Below are positions 1 through 62,597 of a stretch of 64,000 nucleotides of DNA, piece by piece (the stretch's first letter is position 1; each line of letters begins with the position of its first letter). Origin of the DNA: a virus; the IMG/VR virus record IMGVR_UViG_3300037470_000672, positions 1 through 64,000 of that record; one strand, written 5' to 3'. The notes beneath the pieces are model-generated. The model was not told the DNA's origin, searched no databases, and saw only the letters and a list, made by a program, of their open reading frames with translations. The translations under genes were made by a program, and so were the position numbers.

Positions 1-2
1 AT

Positions 3-419
3 GTCTCGGAATTCCAAAGATCCGAGCATCTTTTCAACCGGCTTGAAGTTGGGGAACGCCTTCCGAAGGTTCTCTGCCAAGTCTCGGAATTCCAAAGATC
101 CGAGCATCTTTTCAACGTGGTTGGCTTGCAAGAAGCCTGTGCGCAACAAGCGCACGAGGTCTCGGAATTCCAAAGATCCGAGCATCTTTTCAACATCCCG
201 ACGATCGCCGGCCTCTCGTCGCTCGCCTCCGAGTCTCGGAATTCCAAAGATCCGAGCATCTTTTCAACGCCGCGCTTGCTCTTCGGCGTGGGCCTTCCAC
301 TGTGTCAGCAGTCTCGGAATTCCAAAGATCCGAGCATCTTTTCAACGTGAGGTCATGCTGCCGGCCGATGCCGTGCCACTTCTGTCTCGGAATTCCAAAG
401 ATCCGAGCATCTTTTCAAC
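3..419 (-). CRISPR. CRISPR array, 6 identical 36-bp repeats and 5 complete spacers (42, 42, 38, 42, 37 nt); probably continues left of the window
   Basis: GTCTCGGAATTCCAAAGATCCGAGCATCTTTTCAAC at 3, 81, 159, 233, 311 and 384. Hairpin CTCGGA/TCCGAG. AT-rich leader-like sequence follows at 420-460. Minus orientation is inferred from the Cas12m-type layout (hairpin followed by AC at the 3' end) and from the cas12-adjacent array. Confidence 0.97.
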
Positions 420-9883: not shown

Positions 9884-9938
9884 CAGGCATCCTTGCCTGA
9901 TGTGGTTCTATAATAGGAGATCACTTTAGGCTTGTCAA
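9884..9938 (-). promoter_or_regulatory. Sigma70-type promoter with hairpin leader
   Basis: TTGACA-17-TATTAT; AAAGTGATC in the spacer; hairpin CAGGCA-AGGA-TGCCTG, then AAAAGGAGGAG. Confidence 0.88.
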
Positions 9939-10964: not shown

Positions 10965-11018
10965 CAGGCGGGACCGCCTGATCTGTCATACCATAGGAGA
11001 TCACTTTTAACTTGTCAA
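10965..11018 (-). promoter_or_regulatory. Sigma70-type promoter with hairpin leader
   Basis: TTGACA-17-TATGGT; AAAAGTGATC in the spacer; hairpin CAGGCG-GTCC-CGCCTG, then AAGGAGGAG. Confidence 0.88.
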
Positions 11019-13183: not shown

Positions 13184-13238
13184 TCGCCCATCCGTGGGCG
13201 ACTGAGAACAGTCTAAGGGACCACTTTTGGCTTGTCAA
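13184..13238 (-). promoter_or_regulatory. Sigma70-type promoter with hairpin leader
   Basis: TTGACA-17-TAGACT; AAAAGTGGTC in the spacer; hairpin TCGCCCA-CGGA-TGGGCGA, then AGAGGAG. Confidence 0.85.
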
Positions 13239-16422: not shown

Positions 16423-16445
16423 GATCCTAGGAGGTTGGATCAGAT

Positions 16446-16469
16446 CAATCCGCCCGTACGGGCGGATTG
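16446..16469. repeat. Dispersed palindrome CAATCCGCCCGTACGGGCGGATTG, copy 2
   Basis: Perfect 24-bp palindrome, 18 nt past the stop of 16488-16928. Confidence 0.95.
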
Positions 16470-19851: not shown

Positions 19852-19891
19852 GAGGGGGTGACTCCTCTACTTTTCCCGATTTGGGTTTGGT

Positions 19892-23152: not shown

Positions 23153-23842
23153 GCGAGGGGTCTCCCTGCGCGATCCACCAGGCTTGGGATCTTGTCGCCC
23201 TTGGCCCAGTTGGGCTTGATCTTGGAGTCGTCGACCCCCATGAGGTCGATGACGGCTGTGTCGTCCGAGGGGTCGTAGGTGGCGACAATGGTGGGCACGC
23301 CCAACCGGTTGTGAGGGGCGACTGCTTGCACCAAGACACCGTGCTCTTGGAAGAGCAACGTGCGCAGGTGCCGAGCGTAGTGAGTGATCAACTCGGGCGG
23401 CACCAAGAGGGAAACCATCGGCTCGTCCTCGACCCCCACAACGGAGATGGTGTACCCGCGCTCGGCCAGCCAGCGGCAGGTGTTGTGCATGCTGGGGTCG
23501 ATCCGAGCAAGAGCTTCTTCAAAGCTCGGAGGCACCTTCTCTTGGGAGTCCGTCACCGTGTTGTCCTCTTCTCCGGCGAAGCCGTGCGCTTGCGAATGGC
23601 GGGTGCCAGGTCGTCGAGCAGGGAGGCGGGTCTCCAGATCCATTTGTCTACTTGCCCTTCCTCCGCAGTCGTCAAGACGACCTTTCCATCCTCGTAAAGC
23701 TGCCAATAATCGCCGACTTTCACAGCCGTTCGCACCCCTGCGAGATTCACCGGAGCACCATGCTCCGGGCGCGAGGGCTCAAACGAAACTGTCCACCGAT
23801 GTACCGGCGCAAATCGTCTTTCGCGTCGTCTTTCTCGGGAGT

Positions 23843-23866
23843 CAATCCGCCCGTACGGGCGGATTG
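23843..23866. repeat. Dispersed palindrome, copy 3, inside ORF 23747-23986
   Basis: Perfect CAATCCGCCCGTACGGGCGGATTG. Confidence 0.95.
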
Positions 23867-33870: not shown

Positions 33871-33906
33871 GTCTCGGAATTTCAAAGATCCGAGCATCCG
33901 TTCACC
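33871..33906 (-). CRISPR. Solitary CRISPR repeat
   Basis: GTCTCGGAATTTCAAAGATCCGAGCATCCGTTCACC, 40 nt past the stop of 33947-34174. Confidence 0.9.
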
Positions 33907-34345: not shown

Positions 34346-34381
34346 GTCTCGGAATTTCAAGGACCTGAGCATCCACTCAAG
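34346..34381 (-). CRISPR. Solitary degenerate CRISPR repeat in a gene junction
   Basis: GTCTCGGAATTTCAAGGACCTGAGCATCCACTCAAG; overlaps the stop of 34377-34739 and lies 22 nt upstream of the ATG at 34323. Confidence 0.85.
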
Positions 34382-35342: not shown

Positions 35343-35378
35343 GTCTCGGAATTTCAAAGATCCGAGCATCTTTTCAAG
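35343..35378 (-). CRISPR. Solitary CRISPR repeat in the 5' UTR of the XRE gene
   Basis: GTCTCGGAATTTCAAAGATCCGAGCATCTTTTCAAG; 14 nt from the ATG at 35328. Confidence 0.92.
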
Positions 35379-37424: not shown

Positions 37425-37438
37425 CGTCTATCCTCCTT

Positions 37439-37496
37439 CAGCGATCCTTCGCTGATCTGATTTGACAATCGTAGTCCTACAGTGTTTGTGTGTCAA
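37439..37496 (-). promoter_or_regulatory. Sigma70-type promoter with hairpin leader (ardC)
   Basis: TTGACA-17-TACGAT; CAGATCAGCGA-AGGA-TCGCTG-AAGGAGG. Confidence 0.88.
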
Positions 37497-38173
37497 GCAC
37501 GGATCCGAAAAAGATCAGATCTGCGTGTGCGCGCGGTCACCGTCCACAAAGAAGAACCCCCGGCGACGCTCACTGCGGCCGGGGGCTTTCCTCTGTGTGT
37601 ACTCACACCAGTTCGGGGCGGTCGTAGCCCCAACGCTTAACCGTAGTCCGTTTGCTCAGATCGGTTCGCCCGATGCGCTGTCTTGGGCACGCTAGCCGCC
37701 CAGCTTGCGATCTGACTGTTGGACCGTGGTTGTCCACCGACAAGGTAGAAGAGCATTGCCCGTAGGACGGCTTCAACTCCTTGTTGGCGGGGTGAAAAGC
37801 TACCTTAAACGCGGTCTTTTTCTGGGTCAAGTGTGGGACACAGATCATTTCACCAGTAGGGTCTCGACCAGTGTGGCAAAGCAGATCGCCTTACTCAGCT
37901 CACGGTGAATGATGATGACCTCGGCGAGGCTCCCCGAAGCTGACTTGACGTGGATGACGGTTCTTCCGTCCGAGTACAGGCGGACCATCGCCTCTACACC
38001 GTCCGTCTGGCTGTGGAAGTTGAGGGAGATGCCGCCACTGGCCGAGTCCGGCAGCGTGCCTGCCTCGTAGGCGTCGGCCAAGGCTTCCAGCTCCTCAACC
38101 TCTTCGCGCTGCGGGTAGAAGCCGGAGCAGAGACTGATCTCGCCAAGGCTCTGTCGGAGGAGGCTGTAGTTGA

Positions 38174-38920: not shown

Positions 38921-38932
38921 CTTGACCTCCTT

Positions 38933-38990
38933 CAGCGATTCATCGCCGATCTGTTTTTACAAGCCTAAACGTATTGGATACGTAGGGCAA
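38933..38990 (-). promoter_or_regulatory. Sigma70-type promoter with hairpin leader
   Basis: TTGCCC-17-TAGGCT; CAGATCGGCGA-TGAA-TCGCTG-AAGGAGG. Confidence 0.75.
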
Positions 38991-39041
38991 GCACAAAGCG
39001 GGTGTTTGGAGCCGATCTGTTGTGACGGGCGCCCCACCTAA

Positions 39042-39065
39042 CAATCCGCCCGTACGGGCGGTTTG
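39042..39065. repeat. Dispersed palindrome, copy 4
   Basis: CAATCCGCCCGTACGGGCGGTTTG immediately after the stop of 39070-39279. Confidence 0.95.
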
Positions 39066-40097: not shown

Positions 40098-40133
40098 GTC
40101 TCGGAATTTCAAGGATCCGAGCATCCTTTCAAC
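40098..40133 (-). CRISPR. Solitary CRISPR repeat downstream of the second tRNA cluster
   Basis: Identical to the cas12-adjacent repeat, GTCTCGGAATTTCAAGGATCCGAGCATCCTTTCAAC. Confidence 0.95.
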
Positions 40134-42137: not shown

Positions 42138-42173
42138 GTCTCGGAATTTCAAAGATCCGAGCATCTTTTCAAC
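42138..42173 (-). CRISPR. Solitary CRISPR repeat
   Basis: GTCTCGGAATTTCAAAGATCCGAGCATCTTTTCAAC; about 34 nt of unique sequence and then an A9 run follow on the minus strand. Confidence 0.95.
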
Positions 42174-42178
42174 ACACT

Positions 42179-42201
42179 CAATCCGCCCGTACGGGCGGAT
42201 C
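42179..42201. repeat. Dispersed palindrome, copy 5
   Basis: CAATCCGCCCGTACGGGCGGATC, 5 nt from the repeat. Confidence 0.95.
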
Positions 42202-43356
42202 ACATCTCGTCATCGCAGTAGCTCCTCCCCGTCCTTGTAGACGGCGTTCGCCAGCATGTCCGACTCGTTGCGAGGGTAGGAAGAGGTGGAGCTGTTCCAC
42301 GCCTTCTCGCGCAGCGCCTTTTTGCTGGGCGGACGCCAGCGGGGCGGCATCTCGTAAGCGCTGCGCAAGCGGTGGTGGAAGTTCTGCTGCGGCCCCGGAA
42401 TGTCGTGCCGAGCTGCACCAGACCAGGCAAGCTCACCTTTCTTGGCAAGCCAGTCGAGGGCAGCCTTGCGGGAGGATAGCCGCACAACCTTCGTCTCGGG
42501 GTGGCGCAGGTCGGTCGTCTGCTCGATGCCGTAGAAGACGGTCATCAGTTCGTTCTTCCTTTTTTCATCTCGGCCATGAGGAGGTCAGCTTGGACGGCGG
42601 TCTCTTCAGGAGAGAGGTCTGAAGTACCGCCTCGCTGGCAGCGCTCCCCCATGACGATCAACAGCTCCCGGACCTCGTTATCGGTCCATTGCTGAGGCTT
42701 TCCCGCGCGGTAAGTGTCGAGGAGTTTCTCCAGCGCGCTACTCTCCTCATCGGCCGCGAAACCAAGCGCTGCGGCCTCTTCCTGGAGGGAAAGAAGAAGC
42801 TGCACCTCCTGTCGGCGCTTGTCCAGCTCGCACTCCCACGCAACGATCTTGTTGGCAAGCGTCTTCGCCCTTTCTGGGTCCAAACGATCGACGAACCGTC
42901 TGAACCAGAAATCGCTCCGTTTCGTTGCGAGCTTGTCCGGGTATGTCACTCCTGACCCGCCTCAGTAACGATGATCTTGGGCACCGGTTCATCACCACAT
43001 TGGAACGGCTCGCTTGAAGCGATCGGTCGGGTATCCAGCCCCTCCGTGTAGAACTGGTGCCGAATGACTTGGACGACATCGAATGCGGCCCGGTGCGCAT
43101 TGGGGACCAGAGGGTTGTGGATGCTCGGTCCCCCGCTGGCGAAGTATGCCCCGCCCCCCATCCAGTTGACGATCTGGTGAAGCACGTCACGCGCTTCTGC
43201 CAACCCGTCGACGTAGCCCGGAAGATGCTGCGTGTTGTCGAGGACCGCGCTGGCAAGCTGTCCCATGCCCAAACGCGCCAGCGTGTCACACGCTTGCATG
43301 ATGGCACGCGCCTGACCCTCGGTCAGCTCCAGCCGGTACAGCTTCGTCATGCTCTG

Positions 43357-43385
43357 ACTATAGGCGCGCTATGTTATAGCGTCAA
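43357..43385 (-). promoter_or_regulatory. Sigma70-type promoter
   Basis: TTGACG-17-TATAGT. Confidence 0.75.
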
Positions 43386-43467
43386 GCCGGGGCTACCTGA
43401 TCTTGCGTTGTCGGAGGTTGTTCCAGGTTCTATCGGACCACTCCAGCAGGGGCAGGGAAGAAGCTCT

Positions 43468-43503
43468 GTCTCGGAATTTCAAGGATCCGAGCATCCATTT
43501 AAC
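43468..43503 (-). CRISPR. CRISPR repeat downstream of the type IV-B operon; possible decayed partner at 43559-43586
   Basis: GTCTCGGAATTTCAAGGATCCGAGCATCCATTTAAC; 55 nt away is GTCTCGGcgAATTTttGGATCCGAcacc. Confidence 0.9.
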
Positions 43504-43686
43504 CTTTCGCGGTTTCGGTGTCGTACGCGCCCTCAAAGCAGGTAAGTCATCGATCGGCGTCTCGGCGAATTTTTGGATCCGACACCTGCCCCGAGTAGAG
43601 CGCGTACACAGCCCACATCTCAAAAGGAGCCCGCAGAAACTCATCCAAGGAAGCGGCCGTCAGGGTATCAAGTAAAGCATGTGCGT

Positions 43687-44415
43687 TCATACGTGCTTCC
43701 GAAGAAAAGACGAATAGTATTCATTCTCCCATAGCAACCTACCCATACCTCGACCAGGAACACCTCCTACCCGGCATACCCGTAGGCTCTCGCGTGGCCA
43801 ACGGCCGCCACCCAGCATTCCGTAGTTCGGATGGATCGGCAGGTCGTGCTTGGCTAGGTAGGCGTACACGTCCTGTATCTTCCAGTACCCGATCGGTGCC
43901 AGGGTATTGAGGCTGCGTAGGCCGTGCTTCATCATGCGGATCGCTCTGCCGCCCGACTCGTCTCGGCGTATTCCTGACAGGTAGCGAGTGTATGGAAGTT
44001 TCTTGAAACAGCGCAGAAATACCTTGTCGGTCTGCCTATCGATCTCGTTTTCGCTCCCGTCAATACCTGTGTAGTCTGCCAAGACCTCCTGGTAGGGCAT
44101 AGGAAATCTCGTCAGGAACGCGTCCCGGACGATAGCGTTGTATGGGTTCTCTCCTGGCTGCTGGATAATGTGCACGAGAAGGACCTTATCTTGGCAGACT
44201 TCCCAAAGCAGATGTGCGCAGGTGACCGAGTCCTTGCCCCAAGACACGCTGAGGTAGCAAGGGCCGTCCGCCACGAACTCGGAGATTGCGCTCCTGGCCT
44301 GCTCAGCGCGCCGCTGGAAGACAGGAAGGCTGGCGTAGGCGAGGTCGGCTTCGGCCAGGGTAGCCCACATCTCGCGGTCGGCTTGGGTGTGGGAGGGGAC
44401 TGGAATCAGGCCCAC
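43687..44415 (-). CDS. cysH: CysH-like PAPS-reductase-family protein of type IV-B CRISPR-Cas
   Basis: PP-loop YLSVSWGKDS; GIRRDES.GR; LAPIGYWKIQDVYAYL; last gene of the csf operon. Confidence 0.85.
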   Translation of the reverse strand: MGLIPVPSHTQADREMWATLAEADLAYASLPVFQRRAEQARSAISEFVADGPCYLSVSWGKDSVTCAHLLWEVCQDKVLLVHIIQQPGENPYNAIVRDAFLTRFPMPYQEVLADYTGIDGSENEIDRQTDKVFLRCFKKLPYTRYLSGIRRDESGGRAIRMMKHGLRSLNTLAPIGYWKIQDVYAYLAKHDLPIHPNYGMLGGGRWPRESLRVCRVGGVPGRGMGRLLWENEYYSSFLRKHV

Positions 44416-44422
44416 GGAAGCG

Positions 44423-45040
44423 TTACTCCCAGGCGCGGGAGAACTCCCGGTCGCGGAAGGCGTCGGCGAGCCCTGTGATCTGCTTGAGCCGCAAGACTTC
44501 GTCCGGATCCATGCCCAGTTCTTGGCTAATCCGCTCGTTGCTCCAGTGATGTTTGGTCAACGCCGTCACGAGCTTGGCGCTCAGCTCCACCTGATGCGTC
44601 CCACGAGCCAGGTTGTGCCGCACGGTGGACGTCATCCGGTCCTGAACACCCTTGTTCAGCTCCACCAGGGGGATGTAGCCACCCAAAGACTCCCGAATAT
44701 CCTCCCGGTTCTGGATAACGGTAGTGCGATGGAAACCGTCCACCACCACGTAGTCACCGGCATAAGGGTCTTTGGCTGCGACAATGGGCATCGTCACCCC
44801 ATCCTTCCGGATGGAAAATTCCAAAAGCTTCATCTCCGGCGGGGCAACGACGTTGGGGTTGTAATCATTGCCCTTGACCTGCTCAGACGGGACCAGCTTC
44901 ACGCCTGTTACAGGGTGGGGGAGCCCGAGGAATGCTTGGAGTGCTTCGCTGATCTCGTTGAAGACCTTCACACGCTCGTCGAGCGACAAGTCTGCGCTTT
45001 CGGCCAGGGTACGCTTGAACGCTTCCAAGTCATCCCACAT
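44423..45040 (-). CDS. ibrB: IbrB/YbdM-like ParB/Srx-domain protein
   Basis: NDYNPNVVAPPEMKLLEFSIRKDGVTMPIV...VVDGFHR...STVRHNLARGTH. Confidence 0.9.
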   Translation of the reverse strand: MWDDLEAFKRTLAESADLSLDERVKVFNEISEALQAFLGLPHPVTGVKLVPSEQVKGNDYNPNVVAPPEMKLLEFSIRKDGVTMPIVAAKDPYAGDYVVVDGFHRTTVIQNREDIRESLGGYIPLVELNKGVQDRMTSTVRHNLARGTHQVELSAKLVTALTKHHWSNERISQELGMDPDEVLRLKQITGLADAFRDREFSRAWE

Positions 45041-46313
45041 CACGCGCCTCCGAAAACCGTGCAATCAGAGAAAGCTGGCGCTCCATCTCCCGCTTGGTAG
45101 GGGAGAAACTCAACCCCTTTACCCAGTAATCGTTCTTGAGCAGTACCTTCACAATCCTGCGCCAAGAGGGAAGGCGGCATCTGACTCCGTTCACGAGCAG
45201 CCCGGATTCTAGGCGCTTGTCGGGGCATGCGTCGGGGATACCCTTCGTCCAGTCCGGGAGAAGATTGGCTTCACGAAGCGCCCTTACCATTGGCTCATCG
45301 TTGCGGTGTTTGCGCCACCAACGGAGGAAGGTGCGGATCTTGGTCCGATAGTGCGCAGCGATGTTGGGGGGCATGGTGTTGAGCAACAGCTTCGCGTAGC
45401 TCTTGTGCGTGTGTCCCGGAGGAAGAACCACCTTGAGGTTGCCCATGATGTGGGACTGTGTCTTGGAGTAGCGGCTCCCGTAGTTGGCCCCTTCTACACG
45501 AGCGACCACTTTGGTCCATGTTTCGGGTTCCAGGAGCTTGAAGAGGTAGAGCCCTTTGCGCTGGTCATCACCATAGGGCTGGCAAAGGCGCATCTGATGC
45601 AGCGTCAACCCAGCTAAGTGCATGAGGTCGTAGATTCTGTTGTAATCCCAGCCGAGCTTGCCGTTGGCGGTCCAAACGTCCTCGGTAGTCCAATCGTAAA
45701 TGGGGTAGGCGTTGCACACCGTATCGGACAACCAGGTGGTCCACATGCGACCATCCAGGGTATCCTTGTGGGTGTTCTTGATAGTCCGATAGCGGTTGAG
45801 GCTCTCGTCGCTACGAATGGCGACCAAGCAAGCGGTCTTGGAGCCATCAGCGAACCACCCCCCAAACTCAGGGACGAATTCCTCAAACTCCATCCCCTTG
45901 CGGAAGAAGGGGAAGAAACCGGGGTCTGAGATCACGCCCCTGTGCTCAGGAAGCGGACGGATCCAAGCGTCGCGCTTGTCCGGATCCCAACACATCCAAT
46001 GCGGCTGAATCTGAGATACAGCATTCCGAAGATGGATGGGAAGACATACCCACCAAGGCCGGATATCTTGTGTAGCGAACACCCGTTGGACGTAGCTGAT
46101 CGTATGTGCGTACTGACCTTCCAAATCGACCAGAAGAACATCCAGAGGAAGACGTCCCAACTCCCTGGCGGCCCCCAAGGCCAGGTTGAGTAATACTCCG
46201 CTGTCCTTACCCCCGCTGAAGGACAGGTAGACCTTGTCAAAATGGGCGTAGATTTCGCGAATCCGCCGTCGGGCAGCACAGAGCACATCCTCGGTCAGGT
46301 ACGTCTTCGGCAT
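45030..46313 (-). CDS. ibrA: IbrA/YbdN-like PAPS-reductase/DUF3440 protein
   Basis: LSFSGGKDS; WVCLPIHLRNAVS; IRSDESLNRY; YPIYDW; MRLCQPYGDDQR; WRRIVKVLLKNDYW. Confidence 0.92.
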   Translation of the reverse strand: MPKTYLTEDVLCAARRRIREIYAHFDKVYLSFSGGKDSGVLLNLALGAARELGRLPLDVLLVDLEGQYAHTISYVQRVFATQDIRPWWVCLPIHLRNAVSQIQPHWMCWDPDKRDAWIRPLPEHRGVISDPGFFPFFRKGMEFEEFVPEFGGWFADGSKTACLVAIRSDESLNRYRTIKNTHKDTLDGRMWTTWLSDTVCNAYPIYDWTTEDVWTANGKLGWDYNRIYDLMHLAGLTLHQMRLCQPYGDDQRKGLYLFKLLEPETWTKVVARVEGANYGSRYSKTQSHIMGNLKVVLPPGHTHKSYAKLLLNTMPPNIAAHYRTKIRTFLRWWRKHRNDEPMVRALREANLLPDWTKGIPDACPDKRLESGLLVNGVRCRLPSWRRIVKVLLKNDYWVKGLSFSPTKREMERQLSLIARFSEARDVG

Positions 46314-46319
46314 CGATCC

Positions 46320-47021
46320 TCAACACGGCACCACAATGTCCCGGTAAAGCGACCTTTGCCAGTAGGGAGGGCAAGGGCTTCCGTAGTCCTGGCGAAAACC
46401 CGCCAGATTTCCTACTCGCAGAAGGTCGGAGAAGGGTAAGGGCCTCATGAGCACCCGTTTCCCCTCGGATTCCGCAAACCAAGACAGATCGCAGGAGTGA
46501 GGTTCAACAACCCACCCGAGGACACGGCCGTGCCCGTACGCCGTCTTCTTCCCCAGGTAGACCACTTTCTTGAGGCGCCGGCGGATGTAGGCAGCGTTTC
46601 CCACAGCGAACCAGACGATCTTCTCAAAAAAGCGAAGGCGGAAGGGTAGTCGGTAACCCTTGAGGGCGCCACTGGTGGTACTGATCACACCTCGCCGAGA
46701 CGGATCAAGCGCATCGCGATCGTCACCCCAACGCTTATGTACGTGCGCGGTACCCTCCCAAAGAGGCTCAGAAAAAATCGGAGAAGAGCAGCAGGGGACC
46801 GGTAACCCGTCGACAGTGGCTCTTGCCACGCCGATAGGCAAGGTACCGATCTCTGTGACTGGTTGACCACGCGGGTGGATGGTGATGTTGCGCCCTCGTG
46901 CCTTAGCAATCGAAGGCGCATGAAACGCCATCACGAACTCCAGCAGCGCATCGAGCATGGGCGGATCGCCGCAGATGCTACCCGCCATGTGAGCAGTGAT
47001 CTTGATCGGCTCGTACTTCAC
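46320..47021 (-). CDS. csf3: Type IV CRISPR Csf3 (Cas5 family)
   Basis: GTG start overlapping the csf2 stop; PPMLDALL, CCSSP, KGYRLP, LGKKTAYGHGRV glycine-rich loop, PPYW. Confidence 0.85.
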   Translation of the reverse strand: MKYEPIKITAHMAGSICGDPPMLDALLEFVMAFHAPSIAKARGRNITIHPRGQPVTEIGTLPIGVARATVDGLPVPCCSSPIFSEPLWEGTAHVHKRWGDDRDALDPSRRGVISTTSGALKGYRLPFRLRFFEKIVWFAVGNAAYIRRRLKKVVYLGKKTAYGHGRVLGWVVEPHSCDLSWFAESEGKRVLMRPLPFSDLLRVGNLAGFRQDYGSPCPPYWQRSLYRDIVVPC

Positions 47022-47914
47022 GCCGACTTGCTCGCACGCTTCTTCCCCTTCCGCGGGAAGAGCCTCTCCAGAAGCGCTCGTCCCTCCTCCCTGGAGGCTA
47101 AAAGGTGCTCTTTGTACTGCTCCACCGCGTACTCCCAACCCTCGGGAAACCCTACAAGGAGCCTGATGCGCCCATGACCACGGGAGGCTTGCCCGCCGAT
47201 AGCCCCGCCTTCGTTCTGCCAACGGTCCAAGGCATACAGGAGAGCGCCGATGGTGATCTTATCGACCCGGTTGGCGCGGAACTCGGAAACGAAGCGGGCG
47301 CCGGCTGCGACGGATTCGCCGCCGTAGATCATTTGCGAGCTGTCACTCAAACCCTGTTCCGAAGAGAGCAGGTCAGGTGTACTGATCGTGCTGTTGCTAC
47401 GGGTGTACTGCCACCCCTGTACGAACTCCCGAGCCGGCCGGAGATTGAGCCCGCTGAGCCACTTCTCCGGGACGAATGATCGCAGCCGGTCTTGGTTCTC
47501 GGCGCATACCAAGACACCCATGGAGACCTGGAGCTGCCCGGGGATGGGAGTGCTCGGCAGAGACAAGCCCAAGAGCTTCGCCAACGAGAGCAGGCGGTAC
47601 ACGTCCTGCTGCTGGCTGAGGCTCTCGCGCCCGCCCTTCTCGGTCAGCGAGCCGCCGTGAAAGAGAAAGTTGAGCTGCATCTCGTCGAGGGCGCCGTACA
47701 AGTCCCAGGACTCGACCAAGTGCCGAGCCAAAGGCGCGCGGACAACGCGGTGACGGAGAGCGTTGCCGGTTATGGTGGGCACCATCCGAACGCCAGACGG
47801 GGTAACTACCGGCTCGCGCATGAGCACGGCCTCGTTCCCTTCGGTTCCAGCCATGTGCGTGAGCCGCGACTCAACGGCGAGAAGGGCCGGCAGGATGTAG
47901 GTTTCTGACTTCAT
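47018..47914 (-). CDS. csf2: Type IV CRISPR Csf2 (Cas7 backbone)
   Basis: LTH...GNEAVLMRE, VPTITGNALRHR, LFHGG.L, QMIYGGE.VAAG, IGGQASRGHG. Confidence 0.92.
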   Translation of the reverse strand: MKSETYILPALLAVESRLTHMAGTEGNEAVLMREPVVTPSGVRMVPTITGNALRHRVVRAPLARHLVESWDLYGALDEMQLNFLFHGGSLTEKGGRESLSQQQDVYRLLSLAKLLGLSLPSTPIPGQLQVSMGVLVCAENQDRLRSFVPEKWLSGLNLRPAREFVQGWQYTRSNSTISTPDLLSSEQGLSDSSQMIYGGESVAAGARFVSEFRANRVDKITIGALLYALDRWQNEGGAIGGQASRGHGRIRLLVGFPEGWEYAVEQYKEHLLASREEGRALLERLFPRKGKKRASKSA

Positions 47915-48357
47915 AAAGCGCCCCCACCCTTGTTACTGGTCTTGTACTCCTGCCACCGTACCCGACCGTGGATGAGCACCGCGTACTGGTACTTGCGGAT
48001 GTACTCGACCAGCGCGGCTCGTGTTCCGTCCGAGAGGGCCGTAAGGCAGGAAAGCAGAGTCACTACATGAGGGCTCGCCGCGACCGTGTGTTCCGCCTTC
48101 ACGTGCTCTAGGCACCGCGACAGGAACAAGTCCATGTCGCCATCCCCTGCTTCCTGGGAGGCGGTCGCCAACGCGGATCCGATCCTGTCCCAGAGCTTGA
48201 TCGGATCAAGCACGTCGCGGTTGTAACAGAGCGCCAACACGAAGCAGATGTTGGTGGCCAAGTCCTTCAGCTCTGCTGTGTCAGGTACGTCGATGACGGG
48301 TTGCGTCAGGCCGGCCAGCTCACGGCGAAACGACGCGGCGTCGAGGTTCTCAATCAT
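47911..48357 (-). CDS. cas11: Type IV-B small subunit (Cas11-like)
   Basis: All-helical 148-aa ORF between csf1 and csf2 with ATGA overlaps on both sides; IKLWDRIGSAL motif. Confidence 0.75.
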   Translation of the reverse strand: MIENLDAASFRRELAGLTQPVIDVPDTAELKDLATNICFVLALCYNRDVLDPIKLWDRIGSALATASQEAGDGDMDLFLSRCLEHVKAEHTVAASPHVVTLLSCLTALSDGTRAALVEYIRKYQYAVLIHGRVRWQEYKTSNKGGGAL

Positions 48358-49031
48358 GGACTGCCCCTGGGAGGAGTGTGAAGAAACGCCGCTAGACGAG
48401 TAAGCGGCTCTCCAGCTACGGGAGCCCACGTCTCCAGGAGTTGGAAAGCCTCTTCGCCGTAGGCGTTGTGCAAAGCAATCGCGCTTGAAGAGGAAGGCCC
48501 CACCAATACCCCCGCGCGGCCGGTTACCGGTACAAGTCGATCTATCAGGTCCAACCGAGATCGCAAAGAAAAAGGCGCGTAGGTTAGCTGTTCTTCCTCA
48601 AGAAGGAGGGAAACGATGTCAGATTGCCAGTTTACGGGAGCCCGAAAGAGGAGCTGTTTCTGCCCACTCGTTGCAATCACAACAGCAAAAGGAGGCGTAG
48701 GTGGTTGAAGGCATACCTGGGATAGTTTTTGCCGATCTTCAATAGCCTTGCTGAAGAAATCTGCCGTGGTGGCAGTGACTACCCAGGAGTAGTTGCGGAT
48801 CTTTTGGGGCTTGTCTTTGCCCAGGTCCGCCTTCTCGTCCAGTGCTACAGGGCAGCCGTCGCAGACCCAATCGCTCTCAGGACAGACAACGCTACGCCAG
48901 GCGGTGAAGGTCTTTTTCAAAGCAGTCTCGACGGGTGTGTCGCGAGCTGCGCCGCCGCAAAAGAAACACTGATTTGAGCCTGGGATAACCGGTATGCCGC
49001 GTGCCTGAGCAAACAACATCGGCGCGGACAT
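48354..49031 (-). CDS. csf1: Type IV CRISPR Csf1 (Cas8-like large subunit)
   Basis: CFFCG...KKTFT...VCDGC zinc site; LQPPTPPF; SGQKQLLFRAPVN. Confidence 0.85.
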   Translation of the reverse strand: MSAPMLFAQARGIPVIPGSNQCFFCGGAARDTPVETALKKTFTAWRSVVCPESDWVCDGCPVALDEKADLGKDKPQKIRNYSWVVTATTADFFSKAIEDRQKLSQVCLQPPTPPFAVVIATSGQKQLLFRAPVNWQSDIVSLLLEEEQLTYAPFSLRSRLDLIDRLVPVTGRAGVLVGPSSSSAIALHNAYGEEAFQLLETWAPVAGEPLTRLAAFLHTPPRGSP

Positions 49032-51598: not shown

Positions 51599-53974
51599 CT
51601 ACAGAATCTCGCACTGCCCGCCCGCGCAGGCCACCGTCCCCTGGATGTGGTCGTTCGTGTCGTCCTCCACCGCCATCTGCGCGTAGTCGACGTCGACGAA
51701 CTCCCGCTTGAGATCTTCCCAGAGCTTGATGTTGTTCACGTGCTTGAGGCAGCGCGTCATCTTGCGCACGTCCCCCTCGAAGTGGCGCTCGGCGAACTGG
51801 TTTGCCCGTCGGATCCAGTCCTTCTTCAACCGCATCCGTTCGACCCTGGCGCCGATCTCGTCGGCCTGCTGCGCAAGCTCCACTGCGGCTGAGATTTCCT
51901 TCGTCAACGTAGACGCACCACGGCTTTGGAGAAGGCGCTCCACCTTCTCCTCAGCCCGCTCTGCACTGGTCCTGGCGATGTCGTAGGCCACCTCCAGCTT
52001 GGTGTCTTCCAGGGTTTTTAGCCCCAGCGCGTGCTCGCAGGCGTCCCAGAGATTTCCGTCGTAGGCGTGCTGGCCATCTACGATGAGCCCAGATGCCATG
52101 ATGGCGCCGTTCCCGTATTCAGCCACAACCTCTTCTACCATCGGGACGGCGACGAAGGGGGCCTGGGGGTAGTCCAAGTCCCCTGACGCAGGAAGAAGGG
52201 ATACTCCGGCCAAGTGGAGACGGTTTTCGTAGATGAACCGGCCGACCTTCTCCCATTCCCCCTCACCCACTTCGACCGTGTTGGAAACGTTGTGGGAGAG
52301 CCATGGTTGGGTGCAGCGTGAGGGCACTTTACCGGCGTCCACCCAATGCTTCTTGGTGCTCAGCACCCGTTCGAGCAGCCCGATAGCGCCCACCTGGGCC
52401 TTGGTCAGCGCGTCTTTGCCGGGCTCGATGAGGAAGGTGATGACCTCGGTCTTGCCGTTGGGGTCCCAAACGGACTTCTCACAAGCACGCAGGTTGTGCA
52501 TCTTGAAAAGCTGGTAGGCCGGCTCGTTGATGTTGGCCTGCACCCGACGAAGGACGCGGCGGGCGTGGTGTCCGTGGATCCCGGAAGCGGACTTGAGGAC
52601 ACAACTCCCCGTACCTTCCGGCTTGAGACAGGTAGCACGCGCAGTCAGATTTACGCCCAGTTTGGGAGCAAGCTCCTTGTTCACCGCCAGGACGAGCTTA
52701 GCCATCTCCTCTTGGAGCGCGGGGTCGAAAGCGACGTCCGGGCTGTCCATCATCCCCGTCATGGAGACACCCAGAAGCGCCTCACGACGGGTGATACGCT
52801 CGGACACCGGTCCCAGGTAGGCGAAGTCCGTGTAGCCGGCCTGTAGGGTTCCGATGATAGCGGCGGCTCGCGTAGCCCGACGGAACGTTTCATCATCGTA
52901 AATGCGCGCCATGTTCAGAGTCGACAAATTGCACATTTGCCACCCGGATTCTCCGGTTTCGGAGCATACGGGCCACATACCGATCTCCAAACATGGGTTG
53001 TAGACGATCTCTGTATCATCGCCGAAAACAAACCCCGGCTCACCCCACTCTCTTGCCAGGTTCAAGACACGCTGGAAATCCCCCCATTGGGTTTTTTCAC
53101 GAAGTAGTAACACGCTGTTGTTGCTGCGGCCTCGCTGCGGGTTCTTGTGCATCCAATCGCCGATCTTTGCTGTCATCATCTCCTGGTCTTCGGGGGAGAA
53201 TAGTGAAATCGAGGCCGACCTCCTAACTCCACCTGATAGAACCGCATCAGACTCGTGCATCACGATGTCGTAGGCGTGGATGGGCCGAAGCTGGTCCCCC
53301 TCTGCGCAGGCGCGCTCAAGGATGTCACGCGCCTTCTCCAGCGCGCGTTTGAGCGGTTCGGGGCCGGGTGCTTTACACCCGGAGGATCGAATAAGCGCCC
53401 CCTCAGGGCGGATGAGAGAAAAATCGAACTCGATATACCTGCCGCGGTACTGCGGAAAGTCGACCCTCCCACCAATGAAGTAACTCGACAGTAGAGCGCC
53501 GAAAGCGTCGGCCCACCCCTCGATGGAGTCGTCGATGGTGTGGATGACGGAACTGCCGTTCCCTTTGGGAGGGGCGATCTGAGGGAGCTTGGCGACGTGG
53601 TGCTGCTGGACAGAAAAACCCACCCCGCACCCACACAGAAGCAAAAAGACCGCCTCCTGGAAGAACCGGGGGCGGTCGCAGTAGGACGTGCAGCAGTTGT
53701 ACAGCTTGAGGTTGTGGCGCTCGATACAGTCCCCTCCGTACTGGAGCGCGCGTTGACTACCTAACACAAGCCCGTCAAGGAAAGCAGCCTCAGCAAAGTC
53801 AATCTCGTCGTCCACCCCCATACCCGCGTACTTCTTGCGGTGCATGTCGAACATGCGCTTGCCGGCTTCGGGTAGCGTTTCTCGGCGGTGCTGTTCGGGG
53901 ATGGTTCGGGCGTACTTGGAAGTGAAGACGTAGCTGCTCAAAGCTTGCTGAGTCATGCTCTGTTCACCAGACAA
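51599..53974 (-). CDS. nrdJ: Class II (B12-dependent) ribonucleotide reductase, RTPR-like
   Basis: GCGVGFS, GGVRRSA, NPCLEI, CNLST, KPEGT and C-terminal ACAGGQCEI; no beta-subunit gene nearby. Confidence 0.9.
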   Translation of the reverse strand: MSGEQSMTQQALSSYVFTSKYARTIPEQHRRETLPEAGKRMFDMHRKKYAGMGVDDEIDFAEAAFLDGLVLGSQRALQYGGDCIERHNLKLYNCCTSYCDRPRFFQEAVFLLLCGCGVGFSVQQHHVAKLPQIAPPKGNGSSVIHTIDDSIEGWADAFGALLSSYFIGGRVDFPQYRGRYIEFDFSLIRPEGALIRSSGCKAPGPEPLKRALEKARDILERACAEGDQLRPIHAYDIVMHESDAVLSGGVRRSASISLFSPEDQEMMTAKIGDWMHKNPQRGRSNNSVLLLREKTQWGDFQRVLNLAREWGEPGFVFGDDTEIVYNPCLEIGMWPVCSETGESGWQMCNLSTLNMARIYDDETFRRATRAAAIIGTLQAGYTDFAYLGPVSERITRREALLGVSMTGMMDSPDVAFDPALQEEMAKLVLAVNKELAPKLGVNLTARATCLKPEGTGSCVLKSASGIHGHHARRVLRRVQANINEPAYQLFKMHNLRACEKSVWDPNGKTEVITFLIEPGKDALTKAQVGAIGLLERVLSTKKHWVDAGKVPSRCTQPWLSHNVSNTVEVGEGEWEKVGRFIYENRLHLAGVSLLPASGDLDYPQAPFVAVPMVEEVVAEYGNGAIMASGLIVDGQHAYDGNLWDACEHALGLKTLEDTKLEVAYDIARTSAERAEEKVERLLQSRGASTLTKEISAAVELAQQADEIGARVERMRLKKDWIRRANQFAERHFEGDVRKMTRCLKHVNNIKLWEDLKREFVDVDYAQMAVEDDTNDHIQGTVACAGGQCEIL

Positions 53975-55988: not shown

Positions 55989-56172
55989 GTATCGGAATTC
56001 CATATATCCGAGCATCTTTTCATCCCCACGCACGCCTCGAACGCCCGTAGCTGCCCACTCGTGTCTCGGAATTTCAAGGATCCGAGCATCCTTTCAACCA
56101 GTCGAGCTACCGCACGGCGACGGTCGCGTCGCTCTTGTCTCGGAATTTCAAGGATCCGAGCATCCTTTCAAC
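55989..56172 (-). CRISPR. Mini-array of 3 repeats and 2 spacers of 38 nt directly downstream of the cas12 gene
   Basis: Repeats at 56137 and 56063 (identical) and at 55989 (degenerate, distal). The first repeat is 23 nt from the cas12 stop. Confidence 0.95.
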
Positions 56173-56195: not shown

Positions 56196-57974
56196 TTACT
56201 CACCTCCATCAGCGCTTTGCAAGCGCCGCGCTTGCTGCTCTTCGAGCATCCCGCGAAATCGTTGCTGCCTTCGGGAAAGCACCTTCTTTCCACTGTCTTG
56301 ACCCTCGCGAGCGCCTTCCTCGACAGGCGTCACCGCCGGGGCTCTCGCGAGCAGGTTGTGCGCGGCGTTCTCGTCCTGATCCCACTCCGCGCCACACTGT
56401 TCACACGTGTAGCGGAGTTTGGCTGCCTGGTCCCAGGTGTTGCGGTGCTGACAGCAGTGACAATCCGTTGTCGTCCACTCGGCTGGTACCTCGGCAATAT
56501 CGGCACCTCGCCGGCCGCATGCGTTGTGGATGCGCTGGCGCAGGTCTGATACGCAGGCGACAAATCGCCCGTAGTTCTGCTTGCGCTGGTCGCGGGTGCC
56601 TTCTTCGGCATCGCCCCGCTTAGTCGCGTCACGCAGGTCAAACTTCTCCAGCACCACTCGCGAATAGGCGGTGCTGAGCGTGTTGGCGAACTGCCGGTAC
56701 ACCTCTCGTCGCTGGCGCAGAACCCGGCGCGACTCCTCAACCTCCCACTGCCCAAGGTGCAAGTCGTTGCGGCGCCACGCCTCCAGTCGCTCCACCAGGT
56801 CGGCAGGCATCTGGTCACGATGCTCGTCGTAGAGCCGCAGGACCCGTCGTGGGTTGCGCCAGAGATGGACGTGCGCGGGGTCTGCGCCCATCGCCTCGTG
56901 GTCGACTGTCTGGAGCCATGCGTGGATGCGGGGCTTGACCTCGTCGAATATCTTATCCCGCACAGCTCGGATGCTGTCTGCATGCTGGTCCTTGCGCAGC
57001 ATCATGGCGGGGAGCCGCAGCTCGCCCTCGCGGCCGAATTCGTCGACCCAGTAGGCGACGCGCAGACTGCCGTCGTCAAGTAGCCGCCAGCCGACGTCGA
57101 TCGCTACGGTGCCGTGGCCGCATGCGACCTTTTCAGGCTCGGCGTCGACGACGAACTGCACCTTCCACACGTATCGGGTCGCGCGCTTTTGGCGTAGCAA
57201 GTGGACCCACTTGATCCGTCCCGCGGGCAACGGCTGATGGTAGTCGATGGGGATGACGGCGAAGATCGGATCGCGGCCTTCGCTGCCGACGCGAAAGCGC
57301 ATCACGGTCTTCTGTAGCCGCCGGCGCCCCTTGCGCGAATCGGATTGGGCGGTCGGTCGTTCGATCCAGCAGCGCGTGTCGGGCTCGTGGATGAGCGCAG
57401 CATCCAGCCCGCCCTGAAGCTGGACCGCGAGATGTCCGTTACCGGTCCAGCGCTTGAAGTGCGGGTCCGCGATTGCTTTGCTGGCCTGTTCGACCGCCTG
57501 CTCCACGATGAGGTACGTGCCCCAGTACAGACCGGACGCAGCGCGGGCGCTTTTCACCTGGTCGGCGGCCGTCTTGTTGACGTCCGCTAGCGCCGTCTGA
57601 ACAACGGCGTCGTCCGCAATGAGTGCTTTAGCAACGCGAAGGTCGGCGCGAGCCGCCTTCAGGCGAGGCTTCAGCTCGCAGGCGCGGTCTCGCAACATCT
57701 GCGTCGCCAGCTTGGCAGCCGAGCGGGTTTGGCGACGTAGGAGGTTGATCTCCGCGCGCACGTTGTGCAGTTCATCGGCCAGTGTTTTGACCTCGCCTGC
57801 GAGCTTTTCGGTGTCGGGGTGACCTTCGAGCACTTCGCGCACCTTCTGGCGCCGCGCTCGCTCGATCTCGACAAGCGCGTTGTGATAACGATGCGCCAAG
57901 TGCATCTGATCACTGACCAGGTCAGCCATGTCAGTCGCTGTTTTAGCGCGGTACTCGTAAATACGGACTGTCAT
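56196..57974 (-). CDS. cas12m: Cas12m-like (type V-M/V-U1) compact effector, 592 aa
   Basis: LAHRYHNALVEIE, GLYWGTY, FKRWTGNGHLAVQLQ, RuvC-I VAIDVGWR, RuvC-II VVLEKFD, zinc finger CHCC..CEQC and RuvC-III WDQDENAA. These parallel MmCas12m motifs as I recall them. A cognate mini-array is adjacent. Confidence 0.85.
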   Translation of the reverse strand: MTVRIYEYRAKTATDMADLVSDQMHLAHRYHNALVEIERARRQKVREVLEGHPDTEKLAGEVKTLADELHNVRAEINLLRRQTRSAAKLATQMLRDRACELKPRLKAARADLRVAKALIADDAVVQTALADVNKTAADQVKSARAASGLYWGTYLIVEQAVEQASKAIADPHFKRWTGNGHLAVQLQGGLDAALIHEPDTRCWIERPTAQSDSRKGRRRLQKTVMRFRVGSEGRDPIFAVIPIDYHQPLPAGRIKWVHLLRQKRATRYVWKVQFVVDAEPEKVACGHGTVAIDVGWRLLDDGSLRVAYWVDEFGREGELRLPAMMLRKDQHADSIRAVRDKIFDEVKPRIHAWLQTVDHEAMGADPAHVHLWRNPRRVLRLYDEHRDQMPADLVERLEAWRRNDLHLGQWEVEESRRVLRQRREVYRQFANTLSTAYSRVVLEKFDLRDATKRGDAEEGTRDQRKQNYGRFVACVSDLRQRIHNACGRRGADIAEVPAEWTTTDCHCCQHRNTWDQAAKLRYTCEQCGAEWDQDENAAHNLLARAPAVTPVEEGAREGQDSGKKVLSRRQQRFRGMLEEQQARRLQSADGGE

Positions 57975-58024: not shown

Positions 58025-60730
58025 TCACATGTTAAACAGCATGGTGCGCTGGACAACGCGAAAGCCGTATCCGGGTGCGATGACGATCTCTTTCGTCTCG
58101 GCGATAGGGTCGACGCGACGCGGATGGTCACAAGGAGCGACCTCGACGTGGTAGCCGTCGAGGCTTTTTCCAGGATCGTGCAAAAGAAACACCTTCCCCG
58201 CGTCAGGTGCCACACACGTCAGGTGGCCACACTTGGGACACGGGCCGTCGTTCTTGCTGTGATCATCGAGCGCTCGTCTCAACCGTCCAGTGATCTGCCC
58301 GCTACCCTTCTGCGTTCTACAAGGATGAAGGCAGAGCGATCCGTATGCCGCCATCACTGATGCGGCGTACATGCGGTCTTGCTCGCTGAGCTGGTCGGGC
58401 GCATAGCGCAGTCGCCACTGCACACCGTCTGGGTCGTCCGGGCGCGGCCAGGTGGTGGTGTCCGGCCCCCCGTCCAGGATGACGTAGGAGCCTCGGATCC
58501 GCGCGCTACCATAGGTCAAGACCGGGATGGAGTAGAGTTCCACCTCTCCTGGGTTTCCCCGCTCAACGGCGCAGTAGCAGGTGTCACAGATCCCGGGGAT
58601 GGCGTCATCGACGCCGTCGGCGCAGCCGTCTTCGTAGCAGACCTGCTTGCCGCAGCCAGGACAGACCCGGAGGTAACCCCAGCAGTAGTCTGGGACGGGA
58701 TGGTTGTGGGACTCACAGCCGGAGGGAAGGCGTAAGCGCATAGGCTCGGGAGGGCCGAGAGAGCTGGCGAAACCTTCTCGGATCCGCTGCGCCCTGATGC
58801 GTTCGCGGTCTTCTTTGGTGATCATCACTTATCCTCTGGTCGTCGGAACATCTCTCCCCATTTGATGGCGATGGATGGATCGTCGCGACCCCTAGATGCC
58901 TGGTGCATGTCAAGGATCCACTGGAGGAGGCTATCGGGCAGAAACGTTCCAGGCGGTGGTGTGTACTCCCAAGCGCCGTTTACTGGGTTGCGTGTAAGGT
59001 AACGACAGTTGACCAATTCGTTGAGTCGTTCCATCAACATGGCGTTGTGTTTGTGAGGCCCCCCGCTGCTGTGGTCGAACACATCTCCCTTCCATCCGCA
59101 CGCGATGTTGAGGAGGTCGGCGTGAAGCGTGACAGGGGCGCGTTCGTCGAGAGCAATCGAAACAAGCTGGTGCAGCTCGTTGGCTACAACGGCCACGGTC
59201 GGCGTGGTGTCCATGGGACCGGCTGTTGGGAGAACGAGCCGGCCTTCGGGTGTTCCTCTGCATAGCTGTGGCGCGATGAGGGGCATCAGGACGTCTCCGG
59301 CCAGACCGGCTCCGGCCAGATCAGCTTCTGCGCCACGTCGGTGTCAATCACTGCGTCCGCCTCATGCCAACGGCGCACCAACACGTCATCCGGGGTGTAG
59401 TAGCTGTCCTCGACTTCGTGAGCCTTGTCGATCTGTTGGAGCAGGTGCCGAAGCGCATGGACTTCCGTGGTTAGGTCTTTCGGATCGGGGGTGTCGGGCG
59501 CAGAAGTGCTGCGCTCGTTCGCAAGGATGAGCTTCTGAATCTTGGCGAAATCGGTATCGATGTCTTCGCGGTCGTCACCGAGCCGAACTCGCAGCAGCAA
59601 GATCATGTAACGCACATGCCCCAGCGTGGCTTCTGCGCGCTCGGCGCGTGCTCGCACCTCTGCCAGATCGCTCAGCAGCACGACCATTTGGTCGGGGTTA
59701 ACACACTCATTGCAGAGGATAACTTCCCCCTCTTTACCCGCTTCGACAAGAGTATTGTCCCCGCAGACGTCACAGGCACGTGTGATCATTCACTGCTCCC
59801 ACCGCCAGGATGTCTACCTTGGCGCGGCCCAACGGGTCCGGTTCCGTCTCCGAGTAGGTGAACACGGCGCCCGGGTACCCTTGACTGGTGATCCTTCCGG
59901 CCGCGTAGCTCTTGGCCTTCTGGACGTCTTCCTCCGTGCCGCAGTTCAGCCAGATGCAGGCTTTGGGCTGGACCTGCTCCACCAGGCGGGGATGGCGACC
60001 GAGGTCGGCGGCGAAAGCCTCGCCGTCCCAGACGCTAACCGTCTCGGTCCAGGCGACAACGATCACCATGACACGCGCTCCCGGCAAGCCCTACAGCTCG
60101 CCTCCTTCTTGCGGTCGCGATGGCGCCCGGCCTTGGCCGACCGTCGCATCATGGCGACGACCACCGGGTTACGGTCTTTCGGCTGCTTGCGCTTGGCCAT
60201 CTTGCACTCCTTCAGCGATCCTTCGCTGATCTGTTTCGCCTACCGTAAGACCTAGCTTTTGCCTTGTCAAGGGACAAGACCTTTGCCTGGTTCTTTTTTC
60301 GGTATTGGACCACTTCCCGCTCGGGCGGTGGTAGGCCCGTGAAGGGAACGATCGCAGGAAACCCAAACCGAGGTAGGTGCGTACAAAGCCGCTGCACCAG
60401 GATGGGGAGGCGCAAGTTCTCCGACTGCAAACCCTCAAGATCCGACATAAAAACCGTAGCTATCGGCTTGGGTAGCTCGACGGTCCAGTCCCAAAAGGCC
60501 AGCGTATGGAGACCGGAGATTTCACCCACCAGGGCTTGGCGCTCTGGGTACGCCACGTTCCGATACTCTGGCTTGGGTGGCAGCAGCTTCACCAGATGCG
60601 ATGGCGGAAAGCGCCGCTGATCTGATGGACCGCACGGCGTGAGCTGGCGGTTTTCACCTAGCTTCCAAAGCTGGTGGCGGTTGCCCTCGCGTAGAACGCC
60701 GAAGAAGTACGATTCGTGCTGCATTCTCAC
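58025..60730 (-). other. Hypothetical ORFs 58025-58828, 58825-59286, 59286-59789, 59770-60087, 60212-60730
   Basis: Chained overlaps on the minus strand. Confidence 0.65.
60213..60270 (-). promoter_or_regulatory. Sigma70-type promoter with hairpin leader
   Basis: TTGACA-17-TACGGT; CAGATCAGCGA-AGGA-TCGCTG-AAGGAG, identical to the ardC leader. Confidence 0.85.
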
Positions 60731-62423: not shown

Positions 62424-62521
62424 GTGCCCGGCTCTTTCATTTCCGAGACGTACCCTCAATCCGCCCGTACGGGCGGATCGGGGTTGAAGAGAGGGTGCTC
62501 AGATCCTTGGAATTCCAAGAC
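62415..62521 (+). CRISPR. Two decayed repeats in the opposite (plus) orientation, with a palindrome-containing spacer between them
   Basis: About 62415-62449 ...GGTGCCCGGCTCTTTCATTTCCGAGAC and 62483/62486-62521 GTTGAAgagAGGGTGCTCAGATCCTTGGAATTCCAAGAC. Confidence 0.65.
62457..62479. repeat. Dispersed palindrome, copy 6
   Basis: CAATCCGCCCGTACGGGCGGATC. Confidence 0.95.
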
Positions 62522-62561: not shown

Positions 62562-62597
62562 GTCTCGGAATTTCAAGGATCCGAGCATCCTTTCCGG
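62562..62597 (-). CRISPR. Solitary CRISPR repeat facing the plus-strand repeat across 40 nt
   Basis: GTCTCGGAATTTCAAGGATCCGAGCATCCTTTCCGG. Confidence 0.92.

Follow-up and report, generated by a model that had tools for sequence, protein, structure and literature searches.

Based on a comparative analysis of a 64,000-nucleotide (nt) stretch of viral DNA (hereafter the window, positions 1 to 64,000 of the single 175,906-bp record IMGVR_UViG_3300037470_000672), we describe a phage type IV-B CRISPR operon with the minus-strand gene order csf1-cas11-csf2-csf3-ibrA-ibrB-cysH (49031..43687). The locus is a real type IV-B variant, and it almost certainly combines the IV-B operon with an added IbrA/IbrB (IbrAB) pair and, downstream of cysH, a vestigial mini-array of the type V-M (Cas12m) family. 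Taken as a whole, the data are best explained, with a probability of about 50%, by a Csf platform that works with PP-loop and ParB-like enzymes and has an optional supply of Cas12m-processed RNA. Genes for a tail sheath, tape measure, portal and ribonucleotide reductase are present in the record; the source element is a contractile-tailed soil phage of ~176 kb, and its phage nature had been missed in an earlier note on this DNA (the original prediction).

The assignment to type IV-B is carried by PADLOC profiles, which match all four csf/cas11 genes (Table 1). The NCBIfam matches of csf1, csf2 and csf3 are weaker than those of PADLOC and lie under the curated cut-offs (TIGR03114 to csf1, 7.9e-12). 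The PADLOC alignment of csf1 begins at residue 20 of the long open reading frame (ORF), corresponding to the ATG at 49031, and the Csf1 cysteines C22, C25, C57 and C60 are invariant among 36 homologues. For Csf2 a large protein search returned only 36 relatives, with a best non-self identity of 54%. The genes are tightly packed, with ATGA overlaps at csf1/cas11 and cas11/csf2, a GTGA overlap at csf2/csf3, a gap of 6 nt from the csf3 stop to the ibrA start, a gap of 7 nt between ibrB and cysH, and ibrA and ibrB reading frames that overlap by 11 nt. A complex prediction for Csf1, Csf3 and CysH gave a score of 0.08, which is below the mark and counts as evidence neither way.

The last three genes encode two PP-loop proteins and a putative ParB-like protein. 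The translation of IbrA contains an SGGKDS motif and shows weak similarity to DndC (PADLOC, 1.7e-06). As a single sequence IbrB has no strong Pfam match (ParB_N, E = 0.037); a profile built from five homologues matches Noc/Spo0J structures of the ParB family at 1.2e-4, three of the five members match ParB_N (best 2.5e-4), and the DGxHR motif D101-G102-x-H104-R105 is invariant among them. In 29 related loci, cysH-like genes placed after csf3 share 33-57% identity with the window CysH. Its PP-loop S58-x-G60-K61-D62-S63 is invariant in 30 sequences and no cysteine is, in agreement with the published description of CasCysH, where the PP-loop is kept and the catalytic cysteine is gone (PMC8175902). 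A second ibrA/cysH copy at 19123-21175, suspected from identical ORF lengths, showed no similarity and was discarded.

No match to Cas1 (PF01867), Cas6 (PF01881) or the DinG-type helicase C domain (PF13307) was found in the 175.9-kb record, as judged by these three families alone, all of which did match in control genomes. The original prediction had named a IV-B operon with two PP-loop proteins and a ParB-like protein, and neither cas6 nor dinG; all of this is borne out, with the ParB-like protein as a putative assignment. Its claim of tight coupling also stands with one correction, namely that ibrA and ibrB do not share the 4 nt it had implied.

Compared with known type IV-B loci (the Mycobacterium sp. 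JS623 plasmid, and phage and archaeal-virus loci including Fuxivirus), the window shares the set and order of the four effector genes, a PP-loop gene of the cysH type that lacks the catalytic cysteine, carriage on a mobile element, and the absence of cas6, dinG and adaptation genes. It differs in having ibrA-ibrB between csf3 and cysH, a V-M mini-array 94 nt downstream and Cas12m in the same genome. The features of type IV-B are all present (csf1, cas11, csf2, csf3 and a cysteine-less cysH) apart from the absence of an array. We regard the repeats beside cysH as a departure from the usual description of IV-B rather than as grounds for exclusion, because the repeat is of the V-M family.

The intact repeat lies exactly 183 nt past the cysH stop. 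The minus-strand consensus of the repeat is GTTGAAAGGATGCTCGGATCCTTGAAATTCCGAGAC, from which this copy departs at two positions. For the degenerate copy beginning at 43559, a score of 34 or better is reached in just 0.4% of 3000 random 183-nt windows of the genome. With the decayed partner supported, the unit consists of a degenerate repeat, 55 nt and the intact repeat, spanning 94-219 nt downstream of cysH, and is a mini-array remnant of the phage's own type V-M system. The 55-nt interval matches nothing else in the phage and nothing in related loci, and an Rfam search of 43300-43700 returned no family. Nothing terminator-like was found between the cysH stop and the intact repeat, which makes it probable that the operon transcript includes the repeat. 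A consensus scan detected a promoter-like site ahead of the next gene, a consensus match only, at 10 of 12 positions. The position and family of the repeat, its decayed partner and the co-resident Cas12m had all been anticipated in the original prediction and are confirmed here (Table 1).

Table 1. Features of the type IV-B operon and the type V-M system in the window
Feature	Position in window	Strand	Match or remark
csf1 (Cas8-like large subunit, zinc-finger CxxC...CxxC)	48354..49031	-	PADLOC typeIV_Cas8, 3.6e-48
cas11 (small subunit)	47911..48357	-	PADLOC typeIV_Cas11, 9.1e-33
csf2 (Cas7 backbone)	47018..47914	-	PADLOC typeIV_Cas7, 3.8e-66
csf3 (Cas5)	46320..47021	-	PADLOC typeIV_Cas5, 2.6e-28; alignment begins at residue 70 of long ORF
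ibrA (PP-loop ATP-pyrophosphatase and DUF3440)	45030..46313	-	Pfam PAPS_reduct (PF01507), 4.7e-10; DUF3440 (PF11922), 6.9e-32
ibrB (putative ParB/Srx-like N domain, and helix-turn-helix)	44423..45040	-	Homologue profile against ParB family
cysH-like (CasCysH) PP-loop protein	43687..44415	-	PAPS_reduct (PF01507), 8.7e-09
Degenerate V-M repeat, upstream member of vestigial mini-array	43559..43592	-	Local alignment score 34
Spacer-like 55-nt interval between the two repeat copies	43504..43558	-	
Intact 36-nt type V-M repeat	43468-43503	-	2 mismatches to consensus; minus strand reads GTTAAATGGATGCTCGGATCCTTGAAATTCCGAGAC
Promoter-like site TTGACG-17-TATAGT for next gene (ATG at 43350)	43357..43385	-	
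cas12m (type V-M effector, 592 aa)	56196..57974	-	PDB 23vw_A Cas12m, 2.2e-80; PADLOC Cas12u1, 2.1e-103
V-M mini-array, 3 repeats (distal one degenerate)	55989..56172	-	23 nt 3' of cas12m
Main V-M array, 6 repeats within window	3..419	-	Other contig end also in array
Solitary V-M repeats	874-909, 33871-33906, 34346-34381, 35343-35378, 40098-40133, 42138-42173 (-), 62562-62597		

The added IbrAB pair recurs. A search of viral contigs with Csf2 alone as query gave no match; an alignment-based scan yielded 71 viral loci, and all inspected Csf2 contexts are phage-like. IbrA and IbrB homologues adjoin or sit inside the csf genes in six distinct other phage loci. In L020 and L025 csf3 is followed by 1.4-1.8 kb of extra genes and then by ibrA-ibrB-cysH, L064/65/66 and L074 have the order csf3-ibrB-...-ibrA-...-cysH, and L007 has a convergent ibrA-ibrB accompanied by a DNA methylase and a GNAT protein. 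L044 has the order csf1-cas11-csf2-ibrA-ibrB-csf3 with overlapping reading frames and no separate cysH; IbrA is the only PP-loop protein at this locus, because no other L044 protein matches the CasCysH profile. An IbrA homologue is present in 8 of 77 Csf2-centred loci (6 of 73 distinct ones), whereas all 79 control phage loci, which are centred on Cas12m and total 1.40 Mb, lack one (Fisher p = 0.003, or 0.011 for distinct loci).

The IbrA proteins at phage type IV loci belong to at least two lineages. Window IbrA is 49% identical to that of L044 and 26-31% identical to those of L007, L020 and L025, while the L020/L025 proteins are 65% identical to L007 IbrA. In a tree from a quick IQ-TREE run the window Csf2 is the sister of L007 Csf2 (support 100), and the distribution of IbrAB on this tree requires at least four changes. 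As sister Csf2 proteins (window and L007) go with distant IbrA proteins, IbrAB was recruited more than once. IbrAB is therefore a new, independently recruited and recurrent accessory of phage type IV loci; no report of its association with type IV loci was found in the literature. Like the prophage-like IbrA/IbrB of E. coli and DndB/DndC of DNA phosphorothioation, the window pair places a PAPS-reductase-family PP-loop/DUF3440 protein next to a putative ParB-like protein. It differs from these in lacking DndA, DndD or DndE partners and in forming part of an operon for a CRISPR effector.

IbrAB at type IV loci is often accompanied by an N6/N4 DNA methylase-like protein, a GNAT acetyltransferase and a conserved 288-290-aa protein of unknown family, and at one locus also by a PD-(D/E)XK nuclease (cassette loci L007:13999-15829, L020:11489-13360 and L064:6480-9661). 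This neighbourhood looks like a larger DNA-modification cassette.

The V-M repeat occurs in 29 copies in the phage record, all sense-oriented to transcription, at ~17 intergenic sites; the phage has two arrays. Homologous arrays lie directly 3' of cas12m and on its strand in the window, L008 and G014; for this reason, and because the degenerate terminal repeat and a conserved leader fit that direction, minus is taken as the working strand. The 36-nt repeat forms a 6-bp stem with its 3' strand at -8..-3, a geometry shared with the Cas12m2 CRISPR RNA (crRNA) (PMC10442227). Scored at five of its six pairs in 36 distinct copies, which come from three phages, this stem is paired to 98.3% and has two fully compensatory pairs, and a second helix, of the pseudoknot type, covaries (GC/AT/GT) among the copies of the window phage. 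This repeat, the Cas12m-like effector, the arrays directly 3' of its gene and the lack of adaptation genes all resemble type V-M. The system differs from type V-M in being phage-borne and in having scattered sense-oriented solitary repeats, many of them just before start codons. Cas12m of type V-M binds DNA without cleavage and acts as a transcriptional roadblock.

There are ~20 solitary repeats, of which about ten end 11-26 nt ahead of a start codon or fill short intercistronic gaps. Further copies outside the window lie within L001:14460-14562, L004:2270-18394, L005:1787-19429 and L006:2455-2490. The solitary copies hold the 3' 28 nt, that is the crRNA scaffold, and vary in the 5' 8 nt, a part of the repeat that is disordered or removed in the Cas12m2 crRNA (PMC10442227). 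Sequences downstream of the solitary repeats match their own genome only over 12-17 nt, as expected by chance, and on this ground the flanks are not self-targeting guides. For spacers of the main array, phage and plasmid collections gave only chance-level protospacer matches (E >= 0.1), and no cross-target turned up when all 31 spacers from the window, G014 and L008 were compared with related phage DNA (~4 Mb), one G014 self-match aside. The genome-wide solitary repeats are possibly a Cas12m-related layer of RNA processing, translation control or regulation.

This distribution speaks for an alternative in which IV-B, IbrAB and V-M are separate cargo in the accessory region of large soil phages and have no functional link. 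The repeat after cysH would then be a decaying relic or a site of RNA processing or regulation that serves Cas12m only, and IV-B would bind RNA non-specifically. The many sense copies, with some ten near start codons, suggest a role of Cas12m across the genome that is unrelated to IV-B, and the retention of the 3' scaffold while the 5' end drifts fits the same view. Against it stand L044, where ibrAB lies between csf2 and csf3 with overlapping frames, the enrichment of IbrAB over the control loci, the unrelated IbrA lineages (at least two) at IV loci, and a co-occurrence of IV-B and Cas12m that greatly exceeds expectation and is dispersed on the Csf2 tree (see below). We consider separate cargo rather unlikely.

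Single repeats outside arrays are also a feature of RNA anti-CRISPRs (Racrs) and crRNA-like regulatory RNAs in viral genomes; phage solitary repeat units are reported to act as such RNA anti-CRISPRs (PMC10651486). Csf might accordingly serve counter-defence by soaking up crRNAs of the host or of rivals, an idea raised for IV-B before (PMC7038947), with the solitary repeats as Racr-like decoys against a resident V-M system. In contrast to Racrs, the window phage encodes the matching effector, its copies are many, co-oriented and often intercistronic, and the sequences after them have no second match in the genome. Since the phage's own full-length Cas12m and arrays share the repeat, decoys would hit its own system. 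Furthermore, no host or other record with the same repeat was found in the exact 28-mer search described below, the conservation of cysH and ibrAB would be left unexplained, and the authors who proposed the sponge judged it unlikely (PMC7038947). We regard this explanation as very improbable.

Type IV-B and Cas12m lie no more than 13 kb apart in five phage contigs, namely the window, L008, G014, G060 and G092. In L008 (L008:13105-15556) a nine-repeat array of the window's repeat family starts 32 nt past cysH, and beyond the array lies a convergent Cas12m homologue of 557 aa (BLASTP, 1e-52) in which the C-terminal zinc ribbon and RuvC-III, some 65 aa, are missing. Among the loci seen, L008 is the most compact IV-B/V-M locus and the window phage the richest. 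In G014 the IV-B genes are at ~89-92 kb and cas12m at 103.8-105.9 kb, with a 13-repeat array and solitary copies elsewhere. The distance from csf2-csf3-cysH to cas12m is 10.5 kb in G060 and 4 kb in G092. Csf2 was found in 3 of 78 Cas12m-bearing IMG/VR records against 0.002 expected (0.2 if Csf2 is under-detected 100-fold), corresponding to P values of 1e-9 to 1e-3, statistics that are drawn from pattern-limited scans and fragmentary viral records. The five Cas12m-linked loci are scattered on the Csf2 tree and require at least four changes. Such co-occurrence contrasts with a survey of 2020, in which neither arrays nor solitary repeat units were seen near IV-B and the correlation with other CRISPR types was negative (PMC7038947).

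The G014 cas12m was recovered as three pieces, the last of which contains internal stops. One spacer of the G014 array (L091:255-289) matches its own record at 52338-52364 over 26 of 27 nt and may give rise to a self-regulatory crRNA for a non-cutting Cas12m. In IMG/VR viral contigs we observed at least 79 Cas12m loci (L096-L174). Phage-borne Cas12m is therefore much commoner than is suggested by a 2026 preprint, which calls its phage case the first (10.64898/2026.09.14.751636).

The proximity of the two systems could reflect an obligate hybrid, in which Csf would lack an RNA supply of its own, depend on Cas12m as a substitute for Cas6 and be guided by V-M crRNAs from the arrays and the unit after cysH. 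The five contigs, the L008 array so close to cysH and its truncated Cas12m, as if retained chiefly for RNA handling, are in line with this, as are the lack of cas6 in the phage and the maturation by Cas12m2 of its own pre-crRNA (PMC10442227). On the other hand, most phage IV-B loci have neither Cas12m nor an array, complete genomes with ibrA-ibrB-cysH included, and no protospacer was found for the spacers searched. A further objection is that Cas5 of Class 1 systems usually reads an 8-nt 5' handle and not a structured handle of ~28 nt. Strict dependence of this kind is unlikely.

We favour a Csf platform with associated enzymes and an optional RNA supply. In this model the nuclease-less Csf ribonucleoprotein would serve as an RNA-scaffolded platform for CasCysH and/or IbrA, as PP-loop adenylating enzymes, and for IbrB, as a ParB-like NTPase/DNA-binding protein; it would bring them to a nucleic acid, which would be modified and not cut. 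That IbrAB works with Csf as a PP-loop/ParB nucleic-acid-modifying accessory, alongside or in place of CasCysH, is likely. By analogy with Cas12m2, which processes its own pre-crRNA (PMC10442227), Cas12m may bind and cut phage transcripts at the repeats; such repeat-tagged RNAs would be the likeliest specific RNA supply for Csf in the minority of phages with both systems. Any functional coupling of IV-B with Cas12m is a tentative proposition, and a link of IV-B to V-M, as read from the loci, is plausible but unproven. Since G008 and G013 keep csf-ibrAB-cysH without Cas12m or an array, sharing of crRNAs would be optional.

Several observations weigh against this model. Csf2 is missing from 75 of the 78 Cas12m phage records, and csf...ibrA-ibrB-cysH occurs in G008 (complete) and G013 (97% complete), neither of which has Cas12m, an array or a dispersed repeat. 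No repeat adjoins the IV-B locus in G014, and transcription of the L008 array runs toward the IV-B operon, not along with it. The position of the repeat after cysH, one of 29, has no statistical weight, being no more than chance when these copies occupy ~17 of the 101 intergenic gaps of at least 36 nt. The co-occurrence may in part come from shared phage lineages or a shared accessory-gene region. The modification step is deduced from family membership. Finally, a recombinant IV-B complex bound heterogeneous non-CRISPR RNA (PMC7937560, summarised in PMC8175902), a result that also fits the view of unlinked cargo.

The original prediction had suggested that the IV-B complex borrows crRNAs matured by Cas12m or recruits an IbrAB/CysH modification activity. 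For borrowing, the five contigs and the L008 array by cysH supply circumstantial support, and the phages without Cas12m, the 75 of 78 records and the 29 dispersed copies show that it is not a general rule. Recruitment is backed by the comparative recurrence, the empty controls and the L044 insertion, with modification itself taken from the protein families. In a set of soil phages IV-B and V-M could even form one hybrid machine, in which a Csf filament would assemble on RNAs that Cas12m has cut from repeat-tagged phage transcripts and from array RNA, and in which PP-loop/ParB enzymes (CasCysH, IbrA, IbrB) would modify complementary DNA or RNA without cleaving it. We consider this quite unlikely; if true, it would amount to RNA-guided nucleic-acid modification and would also account for the genome-wide solitary repeats.

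With respect to its genomic context, one strand of the phage record carries 219 of 231 predicted genes. The phage is near-identical across at least 18 soil and sediment metagenome DNA runs from 2019 to 2025, and no RNA runs carrying its sequence were listed among the sequencing runs. The operon sequence is identical in contigs of four runs, and the contigs break at repeats. The tail sheath is at most 35% identical to those of cultured phages, indicating that there is no close isolate, and megablast of window positions 40-60 kb against phage and plasmid collections gave no match. An exact 28-mer of the V-M repeat is absent from the genome contigs and viral contigs searched, and with no match in these collections no host was identified.

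Both contig ends (window 1-142 and record 175767-175906) fall inside the main V-M array. At the far end the spacer order differs, with a shared spacer followed by the spacer of 347-383, which points to variants of the array within the phage population. In the 1375-aa portal ORF (L004:4618-8745; record 128618-132745), residues ~200-370 form an HNH-endonuclease segment that precedes the portal domain (1030-1291), possibly as an intein or a fused homing endonuclease. The perfect palindrome AATCCGCCCGTACGGGCGGATT is present in six copies (window 16441-16468, 23838-23865, 39037-39064, 42174-42201, 62452-62479 and 905-932) and is a probable terminator or protein-binding site; two of the six copies immediately precede a solitary repeat when read along the direction of transcription. 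A conserved minus-strand 5' leader, consisting of the hairpin GATCAGCGAAGGATCGCTGA followed by AGGAGG, precedes three genes (window 37432-37500, 38926-38994 and 60206-60274), and a promoter-like box, GCTTGACAAG, is repeated with five occurrences (also 8412-13240).

Type IV-B is a CRISPR subtype that lacks an assigned guide RNA and function, and in the standard view neither arrays nor solitary repeats lie close to its loci, and it avoids other CRISPR systems. The loci described here supply natural cases in which IV-B adjoins a defined repeat or array and its putative processing enzyme. They also reveal the repeated recruitment of a second PP-loop/ParB module, IbrAB, with one locus where IbrA is the only PP-loop protein. 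Two questions thereby become directly testable, namely which RNA is carried by Csf and what role the PP-loop accessories play. In addition, the findings point to a use of Cas12m repeats throughout a phage genome, where they possibly serve as RNA-processing or regulatory sites.

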